Assembly (NCBI GenBank): GCA_965246715.1
Contig: CBDFFH010000015.1
Coordinates: forward strand, 32,001-96,000
Direction of reading: 5' to 3'
DNA: 64,000 nt
Source of the DNA: Chamaesiphon sp.
Lineage (GTDB): Bacteria > Cyanobacteriota > Cyanobacteriia > Cyanobacteriales > Chamaesiphonaceae
Shown here one piece after another: positions 3,546 to 8,171 of this stretch (position 1 is its first letter; every line of letters begins with the position of its first letter). The position numbers and the translations under genes were made by a program. The notes under the pieces are model-generated. The model was not told the DNA's origin. It ran no database searches and saw only the letters and a list, made by a program, of their open reading frames with translations.

Positions 3546-3873
3546 CTGATACCAGATTTTGGCAAGGGAGCATCTCACTTTTTATTATTTTTATGGATAA
3601 TAAAATTCTCGCGAGCCAGAGATGAGGGACTGTGGCGATCGAGATTATTTTATCTTTAGGGATTTTAAAAAGTGGCATGCTCCCTTTTGGCAATGACACA
3701 GGGCAAAGGGTACTCTGAAGAATACAGTCGGGAAGATTGGTTGAGCTAGAATCGATCGGAGCGAACATTAAGGTTGCGGATTGATATTGCCTAGTGCAAT
3801 ATCAATCGTGATGTCGCTCGATTAGAAATTTAAGGTACGATCGAGAGGTATTTATTCCCTACATTACCAGATT

Positions 3874-4158
3874 ATGGCCGACCCCATCACCCCCGCAATT
3901 AGCGATCGTATCTGTAAGCATATGAACGACGATCATGCTGAAGCAGTTCTCACCTATGCTAAGGTCTATGGTAAATCTCCCACCGCCGAAACAGCAGCCA
4001 TGAGCGCGATCGATCCGCTCGGGATGGATTTGACTGCTAGCATCGCTGGTGAAACAGTCAATCTGAGAATACCATTCGATCGGGAGCTGACGGATTCTGA
4101 AGATGCCCACCAAACTCTGATCGGCATGATTAAGGAAGCTAGAAAAATGGCTGGTTAG
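3874..4158 (+). CDS. DUF2470 / HugZ-like domain protein
   Basis: RICKHMNDDHAEA...IDPLGMDL...RIPFD pattern. Confidence 0.85.
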   Translation: MADPITPAISDRICKHMNDDHAEAVLTYAKVYGKSPTAETAAMSAIDPLGMDLTASIAGETVNLRIPFDRELTDSEDAHQTLIGMIKEARKMAG

Positions 4159-4187
4159 TTATAGAACCCATTTGAGATCTTCTAGTG

Positions 4188-4253
4188 GTGAGGGTGGGTT
4201 TGTTCGATATCGAACAGTAAATTCGATGTTGGCTAGCATAAACCCACCCCTAC
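4188..4253. repeat. REP-like inverted repeat next to the IS110 insertion site
   Basis: GAGGGTGGGTTT ... CTAGCATAAACCCACCCCTAC. It is an inverted relative of the repeat at 7236-7300 (AGGGGCGGGTTTATGCTAG). Confidence 0.7.
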
Positions 4254-4982
4254 AGATCCATAAATTCGGATATCATACATTTTACAGATCGACCGTAGAT
4301 ACTGTCTTGAATGTCAAGGGGTGGCGAGCGAATAATTAGGGTCAAAGGGCTGTTGAGACTTTAAAATGCCAAAAGCCAAATGGACTAATTTACGCATGAT
4401 GGCACCAATCGCCTGCATTTTAGCCTTGCCACGATCGAGTAATCGTTCGCTGAAAGTTTTGAGCAGAGGATTATGACGCATCGAGACTACCGCAGGCATA
4501 TAAAGAGCTTTGCGGAGTCGAGAATTACCAGTACAAGACAACCGAGTTTTGCCATGAACGCTGGTGCCACTAGAGCGCTCAGATGGAGTTAAACCCGCAT
4601 GGGCAGCTAATTGACGAGCATTCTGGTAATCTTCGATCCGACCGATTTCTGCCAACAAGACAGCCGCAGTCTGTGCGCCAATTCCAGGAATTGAGACCAA
4701 CAGATCTCGCTGTTGTTTTAACTCTGGATGTTTGTCGAAATGGTCGCTAATTAATTGTTTAATTAGGGCTTGCTGTTCCTGGAGATAGGTCAGATGAGAT
4801 TGAGTGAGTTCAGCTACTTTGGTGGTGGCTGTTTCCAAGCGATTGTGTTCGGCTGTGACCATTTCCTGAAGAGAATCTAATCGCCGGACCAGGGCTTGTA
4901 GTTCTTTGATTTCAGGGGCTGTTGGTTTCCACAGTTCTGGTTTAATTGCTGCACAAAAACGGGCAATCAATGCTGCATCAAC

Positions 4983-6550
4983 GTAGAAGTTCAGGGGGTA
5001 GTAAAAAGCAGAGAAATCTGATAGGGTAGGGCACATGGAAAAGACAGTGCCAGAACTAATAGCGGCAATCAGCCCAGAAGAGTGGGCACAAGTACCAGTA
5101 AGCGTCCTGAAGCTAATCGAAGAATTAGTGCGCTGGATGGATCGTATTGAGCAAGAAGTGGCAGCATTGCAAATAGAAAATGAGTTGCTCAAAGAACAAC
5201 TAGCCAGAACATCAGCAAATTCATCACAACCACCATCAAAGAATCCTCAAGGGTTTAAACCAAATCGAAAAGAACCGACGGGTCAAAAGCGCGGTGGGCA
5301 AATCGGACATATCGGACACGAGCGAAAACTGTATCCACTAGAAATGTGTCAAGAAGTAATCGACTACTACCCACCGCAATGTGGGAAGTGTGGAGGGTCC
5401 GTTAATGACAGTTTGCGGACTCAAATATATCGACATCAAGTAGTTGAAGTCCTACCAGTACAACCAATTGTTATCGAGCATCGATTTCATCAGATGACCT
5501 GCACTTGTTGTGGGGCAGAAAATCAAGCACCAGAAATGTCTGAAATTATTGGTAAAGGTGGATATGGCGCAAGAGTAGCAGCTTACGTGGGTTTGTTTAG
5601 TAGTCAGTACCGACAATCCTATCGGCAGATCCAAAACATCATGCTGGCGGTGTTTGGGATTGAGATGTCATTAGGTACGATTAATAACCTGCGCACAGAA
5701 GTAAGTGAAGCTGTTAGTGCTGCGGTGACGCAGGCACAAGGTTACGTTCAGCAACAGCCAACAGTAGGAGTGGATGAGACTGGCTTCAAGCAACGCAATG
5801 GAGATGGTCAAAACGCCGCCAAGACTAGTGGCTGGCTATGGGTAGCCGTAACGCCATTGGTCATTTGTTTTCAGGTGATTCTCAGTAGAGCTAGTACTGC
5901 TGCTCAAACTGTTTTGGGTTCAGCTTTTGCCGGATTTATCACCAGTGACCGTTGCCCTGCTTATAACTGGGTGGATGTGGCGAACAGACAACTCTGCTGG
6001 GCACATCTCAAGCGAGACTTCATTCAAATTTCGGAACGAGTAGGAGCCTCCGCTGAGATTGGTGAATCTCTATTAGCTCAAGAAAAGCTCCTGTTCAATC
6101 TGTGGCATCAATTTAGAAATGACCAACTCACTCGCATAGAGTTAGCACAAGCGGTTGAACCAATTCAAGCTCAATTTTCCACCATTTTGATGGAAGCAGC
6201 CGAATTCCAGATTGGTGAACATGAAAAGACCCCACTAGCTAAAACTGTGCGGACGTGCCGTAATCTGTTGAAGCTGTTCGATTCTTTCTGGCTATTTGTG
6301 CGTGAAGAAGGAGTAGAGCCGACTAATAATGCGGCGGAAAGAGCCATTCGTCCGGCTGTAATTTGGCGGCGGACTAGCTTTGGCTCGGATTCTGTTGCTG
6401 GCAGCGAGTTTGTGTCTCGTTTGCTCACTGTTGTCTCTTCCCTTCAGTTGCAAGAGCGCAATATTCTTGATTTTTTGGTTGAATCTATCTCTGCTGCTCG
6501 TTCTGGTACAGTTCCACCTTCTCTTCTGCCTTAGCCCTGTGAACTTCTAC
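4983..6550 (+). mobile_element. IS66-family element, single-ORF (ISBst12-like group)
   Basis: TIRs GTAGAAGTTCA.../...TGAACTTCTAC. 8-bp TSD GCATCAAC at 4975-4982 and 6551-6558. Confidence 0.95.
5035..6534 (+). CDS. IS66 transposase (TnpC-type)
   Basis: Leucine zipper, NSSQPPS, GGQ.GH.G, CxxC zinc finger, DETG, SDR, QLCWAHLKR, TNNAAERAIR. Confidence 0.95.
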   Translation: MEKTVPELIAAISPEEWAQVPVSVLKLIEELVRWMDRIEQEVAALQIENELLKEQLARTSANSSQPPSKNPQGFKPNRKEPTGQKRGGQIGHIGHERKLYPLEMCQEVIDYYPPQCGKCGGSVNDSLRTQIYRHQVVEVLPVQPIVIEHRFHQMTCTCCGAENQAPEMSEIIGKGGYGARVAAYVGLFSSQYRQSYRQIQNIMLAVFGIEMSLGTINNLRTEVSEAVSAAVTQAQGYVQQQPTVGVDETGFKQRNGDGQNAAKTSGWLWVAVTPLVICFQVILSRASTAAQTVLGSAFAGFITSDRCPAYNWVDVANRQLCWAHLKRDFIQISERVGASAEIGESLLAQEKLLFNLWHQFRNDQLTRIELAQAVEPIQAQFSTILMEAAEFQIGEHEKTPLAKTVRTCRNLLKLFDSFWLFVREEGVEPTNNAAERAIRPAVIWRRTSFGSDSVAGSEFVSRLLTVVSSLQLQERNILDFLVESISAARSGTVPPSLLP

Positions 6551-6899
6551 GCATCAACTGAATCAGTTTTCGTCCGTAATAGTTCGCCCTTGGCAAACCC
6601 TTGAATTCGGGCTGGATTGACGACACTAACGGCAAAGCTGGCTGAGTAGAGGAATTCGGCTAAAGCGTCTCCATAGATGCTGGTCGCTTCCAGACAGGCG
6701 TGCATTTGGTCGATCCCTTTTTGTTTGAGCCACTGCTGCAAACTCTCAAACCCTTGCAGATCGTTGGTGAATTTTTTGGATTTTGTTCTCGTCTCTCCCA
6801 TGATTAGTACTACATGAAAGTCTTTTTTGCTGATGTCTATCCCTAAAAAATTAACTGTCATTAACTGCTTACTCCACTCCTAACTATGCTCAAAGAACT

Positions 6900-7064
6900 T
6901 GACAGACTGTTTAACTAACCTTGTGATTGCAGGCTTTTCGGTAAATCGATTGCCTAAGATACTGTCCAGCTTTAGGTGTGTCTGTCATCAGTTGTGGGAG
7001 CTTATCTACGCAGCAGACTAACAATGTTGTCTAAGGGGCGGGCCAGCTTCACCGATTACTGATG
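6900..7064 (-). ncRNA. Predicted IS110 bridge RNA core (target-binding and donor-binding loops); the transcript may extend up to about 7220
   Basis: On the minus strand: CCCGCCCCT (7042-7034), CGTAG (7010-7006), ACAGTATCT (6965-6957) and ACAAG (6924-6920) match the target and donor halves. Closing stems are CATCAGT/ACTGATG and TGACAGAC/GTCTGTCA. Confidence 0.85.
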
Positions 7065-7373
7065 TCCTCACTCTCACTTTCTCGCATCTGGCGATCGCGC
7101 TCTGAAACTGTTATGGTTTCTTTACGCCGATCGATTTATTCCTCTGACTCCCTTGGTTTGTGTCGATCTCTTTGAACTACGTTTGTTCTAAGCATTGTCT
7201 ATATCGATCGATTACCTACCTCTCTTTAAGATACAAGGGGCGGGTTTATGCTAGAAATTCTTGCTTAAGACAGTCATCTATCGATCGAACCCGCCCGTCC
7301 CAGCAATATCTGTTAGATCGCTCAATTGCCGCGACAGTAAATCATCCATAAATTCAGCAATACGAAAAATCCC

Positions 7374-8171
7374 TCAATGCCGATCGAACAGCGCTACATC
7401 TCGATCGTAACTAAGATCGTTAGTATCTAATAACCGATCCCAGAATGTAAAATATAGCCCGTAATGTCGCCGATAACGATGGTGATGGATCGAGTGGTGT
7501 GCTGGGCCGATAAACCACTTACCCAGCCAGTGGTGAGGAAATGATGGGGACAATAGATTGAGACCCAGGTGATTGACTACCGCCCAGACTGTCATCGTCA
7601 TCAGTATGGCAATCGCGGTAATAAAGTGCAACGGGATGACAAAGACGATCGCGATCAGAAACAGTGACTGAACCAGTGCTTCCGGCGGATCGAAAGCAAA
7701 AGATGTCCAGGGAGTCGGTGCGATCGAGCGATGGTGCCCCTGATGAAACCACTTGAATAATTTGGGATGATGAAACAAGCGATGGATAAAATAAAAATAT
7801 GTGTCTTGGAGGATTAAAACTAAGGCATAACTTACGCCTAAATACCAAATTCCATAAGCATGAATATCGCTATATAAACTGGTAATACCACGATCGTAAG
7901 CAGACACGATCGTCGCCGCAGACAGGGCAAAAACCACAGCAGAGCAGAGTGAGAGCCGAATATCGTGCCAAATTGCCTTGTTTGATGGTGGCTCGATGCG
8001 CACCGCTCGCTGGGACAAAAAATTACCACCAGCCGAGTAGAAGTATAGGTGCAAACCACCTGCGATTGTAAAATATCGCGCGAGGATAATGCCGAGAAAA
8101 GCTAATCCGTAAAATATAAATCTATGCCACGCAAATAAATAGTCGATAAATTCCATTTCTGTCGATCGCAT
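7374..8171 (-). CDS. Sterol desaturase / fatty acid hydroxylase superfamily protein
   Basis: His boxes DTYFYFIHRLFH, HQGHH, NHLG, HHSIHH, and YGLYFTFWDRL. Confidence 0.9.
   Translation of the reverse strand: MRSTEMEFIDYLFAWHRFIFYGLAFLGIILARYFTIAGGLHLYFYSAGGNFLSQRAVRIEPPSNKAIWHDIRLSLCSAVVFALSAATIVSAYDRGITSLYSDIHAYGIWYLGVSYALVLILQDTYFYFIHRLFHHPKLFKWFHQGHHRSIAPTPWTSFAFDPPEALVQSLFLIAIVFVIPLHFITAIAILMTMTVWAVVNHLGLNLLSPSFPHHWLGKWFIGPAHHSIHHHRYRRHYGLYFTFWDRLLDTNDLSYDRDVALFDRH

Follow-up and report, generated by a model that had tools for sequence, protein, structure and literature searches.

We analysed a 64,000-nucleotide stretch of a Chamaesiphon sp. contig (the window), in which an IS110-family element on the minus strand separates a fatty acid hydroxylase/sterol desaturase family gene from a convergent DUF2470 gene (Table 1). 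The recombinase gene of the element is split by an IS66-family insertion, an interruption absent from the initial annotation of the locus. Terminal inverted repeats and an 8-bp duplication are shared with the IS66 family (NF033517; 300 bits for the transposase, cut-off 180), and the insertion is a passenger that breaks the IS110 gene and forms no part of the promoter discussed below. Its transposase gene is directed antisense into the 5' half of the IS110 element and the bridge RNA.

Table 1. Features of the IS110 element and its surroundings in the window (positions in nt).
Feature	Position	Strand	Remarks
DUF2470 gene	3874..4158	+	convergent with the IS110 element
Right flank, remainder of the dispersed palindromic repeat	4158..4296	.	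multi-copy across the genus
Right CT core	4297..4298	-	identity among five copies stops there
IS110 right end, 15 nt	4299..4313	-	identical in 5/5 copies
Left donor arm inside the right end	4305-4299	-	a left-end guide matches it
AAG half of the 3-nt subterminal inverted repeat, right end	4308-4306	-	
-35 box TTGACA	4312..4317	-	from sequence; overlaps the recombinase stop codon TGA (4316-4314)
3' part of the IS110 recombinase gene	4314..4982	-	PF02371, catalytic serine region
8-bp duplication around the IS66 element	4975-4982 and 6551-6558		
IS66-family element, 1,568 bp, terminal inverted repeats	4983..6550	+	inserted in the recombinase gene
IS66 transposase gene	5035-6534	+	opposite strand to the IS110 recombinase
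5' part of the IS110 recombinase gene	6551..6861	-	interrupted beyond the fourth acidic residue of the DEDD RuvC domain (PF01548)
IS110 left end, 374 nt	6862..7235	-	variable leader, then bridge RNA
Right donor guide	6920..6927	-	5-nt exact match 6924-6920; bulged extension taken from IS621
Left donor guide	6957..6966	-	10/10 match to right end plus core; varies with donor in L027
Right target guide	7006..7010	-	reverse complement of core plus 3 nt of right target
Left target guide	7034..7042	-	9/9 match to left target arm plus core; varies with target in relatives
Predicted transcription start, A at left-end position 15	7221	-	from the IS621 register
-10 box TATCTT	7228..7233	-	from sequence and IS621 comparison
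TG between left core and -10	7235-7234	-	from sequence
Left CT core	7236..7237	-	identity among five copies stops there
Left target arm, part of the dispersed palindromic (REP-like) repeat	7238..7250	-	
Fatty acid hydroxylase/sterol desaturase family gene	7374..8171	-	co-oriented; ends 138 nt before the left end

Five copies of the IS110 element, with 11 variable positions among them, were found in the 55 contigs of the genome. Four are 1,361 bp each and carry an intact 323-residue recombinase gene. The window copy measures 2,937 bp owing to the IS66 insertion, its ends lie about 2.9 kb apart, and its recombinase is reduced to a RuvC fragment of 104 residues and a detached 3' portion. All five copies are bounded by the same CT on both sides while their flanks all differ, so the ends did not have to be guessed. 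The IS66 element occurs once in the genome at 100% identity, alongside one full-length 90% relative on C36 and shorter remnants, and a form of the IS110 element free of IS66 is present on a contig from run X2. Because the IS66 element splits its recombinase, the window copy is, judged from its genes, non-autonomous, and would be mobile solely in trans through the enzyme of the four intact copies.

The intact recombinase scored 244 bits against NF033542 (cut-off 140) and aligned end to end with that of IS621, with D9, E58, D100, D103 and S239 at the catalytic positions. A DEDD RuvC domain is joined to a Tnp domain with a catalytic serine (split by IS66 in the window copy). Both ends carry a dinucleotide core, a 3-nt AAG/CTT mirror replaces long terminal inverted repeats, a long left end of 374 nt contrasts with a short right end of 15 nt, and the left end holds a bridge RNA with target and donor guides in two loops. 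The 7-17-bp subterminal inverted repeats and the bridge RNA in a long right end that mark the IS1111 group are absent. By every feature testable in sequence the element therefore belongs to the IS621-like group and not to IS1111. Named close relatives of the recombinase came from Chamaesiphon and other cyanobacterial genomes.

Likeness to E. coli IS621 (PDB 8WT6 set) extends well beyond the enzyme, which has the same DEDD and Tnp architecture (E 1e-75 to 8WT6, about 43% identity). IS621 (L062) has the same CT core and an identical 14-nt donor, and reads TTGCAG, 13 nt, CT, TG, TATTAT. As in the window element, its -35 box thus stands 13 nt before the core and its -10 box 2 nt after it, with a 17-nt spacer. 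In both, the bridge RNA is located in the left end and insertion is at CT/AC of a palindromic repeat. The right end of the window element is only 15 nt and the -35 overlaps the stop codon, whereas that of IS621 is 105 nt with the -35 far from the stop; the window element combines a consensus -35 with a weaker -10, and IS621 the reverse. The left end, 374 nt with a variable leader, compares with 191 nt in IS621. The target guide, the cyanobacterial host and the IS66 interruption also set the window element apart.

In the joined form of the element, the spacer between the -35 and -10 hexamers consists of 13 nt from the right end (4311-4299), 2 nt of core (CT) and 2 nt from the left end (TG), 17 nt in all. 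The initial annotation had reported this TTGACA-17-TATCTT arrangement with its coordinates and its overlap with the recombinase stop, all of which proved exact. Split over the two ends, the hexamers come to lie 16-18 nt apart solely after joining, the sequence pattern of a junction promoter (Pjunc). When 40+40-nt segments of this genome were joined at random 100,000 times, 0.22% of the joins were spanned by a promoter match of 10/12 or better, and in 0.03% the -35 of such a match was perfect. When the donor and -10 were kept constant, 0.11% had a perfect -35 at a distance of 16-18 nt and 1.8% one of at least 5/6. The start was predicted from IS621, whose guide at bridge RNA position 50 equals left-end position 64, placing +1 at left-end position 15. 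The -10 matches consensus at merely 4/6. The TAT within it doubles as part of the right donor arm, and its CTT is the left half of the subterminal inverted repeat and mirrors AAG, roles described in PMC11208160 and PMC11208158; because of this overlap, much of the -10 conservation is explained without transcription.

Conservation was assessed in 31 two-ended elements. Their ends were located from the donor and core motifs, with no use of the -35, and further loci of an element already included were omitted. Among 33 loci, seven lacked a donor motif beyond the computed stop (L012, L015, L016, L032, L033, L035 and L036), of which the insertion-bearing L012 showed TTGACA on the stop when rechecked; another seven had a right end alone, all with TTGAC[AT] 13-14 nt before the core. 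Four of nine plasmid loci were unparsed (L065, L066, L069 and L070). In L069, TTGACT is kept 13 nt before the core even though the stop is upstream of it. Four broken ORFs were omitted from the tree. A TTGA-type -35 (at least 4/6) sits on the TGA stop in 26/31 elements, 17 nt (19 elements) or 18 nt (7 elements) from the -10, counts that are not independent because the elements are kin. Spacer letters vary among these 26 while the 17-18-nt length stays. The codon before the stop is CCT, TCT, GCT, ACT or AGT, ending in T in every case; T-TGA-C closes 20 of 2,479 long ORFs in this genome (0.8%). The -35 is thereby conserved across relatives beyond coding need, as expected of a Pjunc. All 26 of these elements have the final T of the -10 (19/19 after setting aside seven rows selected on that T), whereas it is missing in all four elements with a decayed -35 slot (L028, L029, L064 and L068). 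These four occupy three separate branches of the tree and three of them keep the mirror A; L028 and L029 retain TTGAC on the stop, at 25 and 24 nt from the -10. The fifth exception is IS621 itself, with 3/6 at the -35. The four decayed elements are candidates for another expression route, as in ISPpu9.

Metagenomes were searched with a 20-nt pattern spanning the join and excluding the -35, which returned 13 rows at 12 loci on 11 contigs; the same pattern had no match in viral contigs. Seven of the matching contigs encode an IS110 recombinase 45-48% identical to that of the window element. Six contain a true right-end/left-end join, and in 6/6 TTGA[CT]T stands on the stop at 17 nt, against 0/5 of the other matches (four without a recombinase, and one a left end after unrelated donor-like DNA). 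Four of the six are closed circles of 1,207-1,213 bp with terminal overlaps of 121-127 nt, one carries two junctions 1,210 nt apart, and one further contig is partial. Public metagenomes therefore hold free 1.2-kb IS110 circles (L073, L074, L080, L081 and L078/L079) whose junction is identical to that of the window element over 20 nt. At L082 (584-603), an IS110 left end is preceded by donor-like sequence in place of a target arm, possibly an insertion into a donor-like site.

Joined ends of the window's own element were absent from its own assembly, and none occurred among the joints listed for six runs (X1-X4, X21 and X22), which are assembled contigs that drop rare forms. Joints from about 4250 to 7236 were considered as excision sites and rejected, being other copies of the palindromic repeat. 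One X21 contig (depth 3.8, about 92% alike) comes from a relative and runs from the target loop to the beginning of the recombinase gene, but an assembled contig of this kind carries no information on strand, start or RNA origin. No match to the element was found in the X22 contigs.

All four guides are present in the left end, in the order LTG-RTG-LDG-RDG. A two-hairpin consensus fold of 11 relatives shows compensatory change in 16/33 pairs, and guides vary along with the target in L009, L025 and L048 and with the donor in L027. A single-sequence fold of the region was no better than shuffles (z 0.43), and no Rfam family matched it. The first guide lies 180 nt past the predicted start, compared with 50 in IS621. 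Left ends in nine elements of the clade range from 335 to 515 nt, and the leader between the -10 and the bridge RNA is barely alignable. Tandem repeats of 18-23 nt (2.4-9 copies) fill it in five of the nine (L009, L022, L023, L024 and L034); that of the window element (7070-7220) has none. A variant in run X4 lacks 68 nt of leader, and a short hairpin motif near 7125-7105 looks conserved.

The target is a dispersed palindrome with many copies across the genus. Five perfect 11-nt target sites remain unoccupied in the genome. The same palindromic arms flank a Y1 transposase gene on both sides (L085 1040-1850, own genome C34), which scored 77.3 bits against a cut-off of 80 for the REP-associated NF047646; one of these arms extends for about 18 nt like the IS110 left end, as would a lone left-junction remnant. 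In the relative L090, the same desaturase/DUF2470 gene pair encloses an intergenic region (1284-1510) with no IS110 and a different palindrome, and the repeat itself therefore turns over at this site. Elsewhere in the window, a 43-nt imperfect inverted repeat lies between the glycosyltransferase and DUF2470 genes (3564-3686), and a run of three minus-strand ORFs at 845-2277 (123, 84 and 267 aa) resembles one circularly permuted ATP-grasp-type gene in pieces, possibly frameshifted. The motif GCGATCGC, which we take to be of HIP1 type, counts 5,606 on both strands of the genome and, together with the cyanobacterial relatives of the recombinase, marks it as that of a cyanobacterium.

The genome also holds a second IS110 family, about 56% identical, in four copies (L005, L006, L007 and L001; own genome C47, C43, C22 and C15). 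It has the same donor, a TTGACT-17-TATCCT layout and a different target guide. Two of the four copies carry G at -12 with the guide unchanged, one has a 220-nt insertion in its left end, and one has an intact first-family copy as its back-to-back neighbour. A gene-less mini-element of about 100 bp at C54:20149-20249 has both ends of this second family and may be a non-autonomous derivative.

Junction promoters are already known from IS621 and IS110 circles (PMC11208160, PMC13626964 and PMC12288879), as the initial annotation had stated. The junction of the IS621 circle is the promoter of the bridge RNA, with RNA-seq evidence, and recombination in cis is lost once the -35 is removed (PMC11208160). 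Read-through gives the linear form of IS621 a low level of transcription on which excision depends, since a terminator placed before the left end prevents excision; expression is afterwards raised by the junction promoter, and insertion is favoured (PMC13626964). Two earlier statements about the window element have to be narrowed in this light. That the promoter exists only when the element circularises holds for the two-box promoter; it does not hold for expression, given the weak transcription of linear IS621, the tandem repeats that likewise create the junction (bioRxiv 10.1101/2025.10.25.684509) and the existence of cyanobacterial promoters with a -10 box alone (PMC2758279). That expression is coupled to excision is overstated, since in IS621 excision itself depends on transcription of the linear form (PMC13626964).

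The features legible in the DNA (ends, cores, four guides, spacing, conservation, and circles in relatives) are consistent with a cycle modelled on IS621. Weak read-through from an upstream host gene would supply the first RNA and protein, and rare excision by bridge-RNA-guided recombination at the two CT cores would make a circle. This would bring the boxes 17 nt apart and give a burst of junction promoter activity starting near 7221. The burst would favour re-insertion into the palindromic repeat at CT/AC, and insertion would separate -35 and -10 again. A co-oriented ORF lies 17-234 nt upstream of 4/5 copies, a proportion not significant at five copies; for the window copy, the desaturase-family gene is a possible read-through source. 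Its circle would be 2,939 bp, carrying IS66 and formed with the enzyme of the four intact copies, and its junction promoter would drive merely the 104-residue recombinase fragment and the intact bridge RNA. Cut or copy excision is disputed, with copy-out, single-stranded circles and occasional tandem repeats reported in two preprints (10.1101/2025.10.25.684509 and 10.64898/2026.08.31.748434). If excision is by copy-out, the promoter would need second-strand synthesis and could also arise in tandem copies.

We consider the IS110 junction to be very probably a working promoter in this family, because of the exact geometry, the published IS621 junction promoter, the conserved -35 and the assembled circles of relatives. 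The same geometry, conservation and circles back the earlier reading of an IS621-type promoter aimed into the bridge RNA and recombinase. Two counterpoints are the G at -12 in half of the copies of the second family, and ISPpu9, whose circle forms no promoter (PMC12288879), so that an IS110 circle need not form one.

The motifs might instead be kept for recombination, with TGA serving as the stop, TAT read by the donor guide, CTT mirroring AAG and TTGAC acting as a protein-binding site; the promoter look would then be a by-product and the real start would lie elsewhere. TAT and CTT do hold second roles, L028 and L029 keep a TTGAC that is wrongly spaced, the long 374-nt left end with its first guide far past the start leaves room for an internal promoter, and ISPpu9 uses a native promoter (PMC12288879). 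This reading is nonetheless very unlikely. Against it, the spacing holds at 17-18 nt while the spacer letters differ, and the -35 and the last -10 T have decayed together in three branches, although 3/4 of the elements concerned still have the mirror A. An internal promoter in the left end or leader was found neither by the motif scan nor in the alignment of nine leaders, which shows no conserved motif, and in IS621 the same register is an active promoter.

Both remaining alternatives concern the integrated element. In cyanobacteria, group 2 sigma factors recognise promoters that consist of a -10 box alone (PMC2758279), and some basal activity of TATCTT is therefore possible. The -10 could on this basis work largely alone, or as a weak hybrid with the upstream repeat, and circularisation would alter expression little; the copy on C34, with a 4/6 match in the -35 slot at 18 nt, lends this some colour. 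We regard it as more improbable still, since the -10 is weak (4/6) with no TGn extension, the left-flank -35 slots reach at most 3/6 in 4/5 copies, and the opposite end of the element conserves an almost perfect -35, which makes sense solely in the joined form. The initial annotation had further noted that the integrated -35 points outward toward DUF2470, as indeed it does, and its pairing with a flank -10 would drive antisense RNA over that gene. The -10 slots at 16-18 nt from TTGACA score only 0-2/6 in 5/5 copies, and this outward hybrid promoter was rejected for want of a -10 partner in any of the five flanks. The scan lists one 9/12 site across the right junction (4308-4279), but that site uses another hexamer, and the region holds four such sites against 5.4 expected by chance. 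The target is moreover a fixed repeat, so that a hybrid is not created at random. Outward transcription is barely credible, and an antisense effect on DUF2470 is unsupported by the sequence.

The preferred reading thus remains a split promoter of the IS621-like type, with the -35 on the stop codon at the right end and the -10 in the left end, whose assembly in the joined circle likely raises transcription of the bridge RNA and recombinase. Circles of IS3, IS21 and IS30 involve DDE transposases and terminal inverted repeats, unlike the join of the window element, which would come from RNA-guided recombination at a 2-nt core. Their Pjunc likewise takes the -35 from one end and the -10 from the other, and junction promoters are described for IS621, ISPpu10, several other IS110 and IS1111 elements, IS3, IS21 and IS30 (PMC12288879). 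By description, Pseudomonas putida ISPpu10 is a close parallel, its circle forming a strong hybrid promoter over a weak native one, and ISPpu9 of the same species inserts into REP repeats but forms no hybrid promoter (same source). The junction promoter is accordingly a known IS110 mechanism, found here in a new cyanobacterial member and in a disabled copy. The -35-on-stop layout in a 15-nt right end is common to many of the relatives analysed. A literature search covering few subscription papers returned nothing on this cyanobacterial IS110 clade or on an overlap of -35 and stop codon, though the clade may be included among the thousands of IS110 elements tabulated in the supplement of PMC11208160.

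The leader is the sole lead here that might be new. As a doubtful proposal, the switch of the clade may lie wholly within the 15-nt right end (the stop codon as -35, the donor arm and inverted repeat as -10), with the hypervariable leader of about 100-280 extra nt, often tandem repeats, between start and bridge RNA acting as a length-tunable control or processing region and natural cargo slot. Lineages losing the -35 register would also lose the -10 and turn to other bridge RNA expression. That the leader has a function at all is rather unlikely on present evidence.

For the family, the locus shows the IS621 logic intact in a cyanobacterium, one more example of an established mechanism. The element also appears to be a recent multi-copy bridge recombinase system with a readable target, and thereby a useful orthologue for cyanobacterial genome engineering. 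Its natural variants, namely the IS66-broken copy, the -12 variant, the lineages with a decayed -35 and the variable leader, are suited to testing how far transposition depends on the junction promoter.
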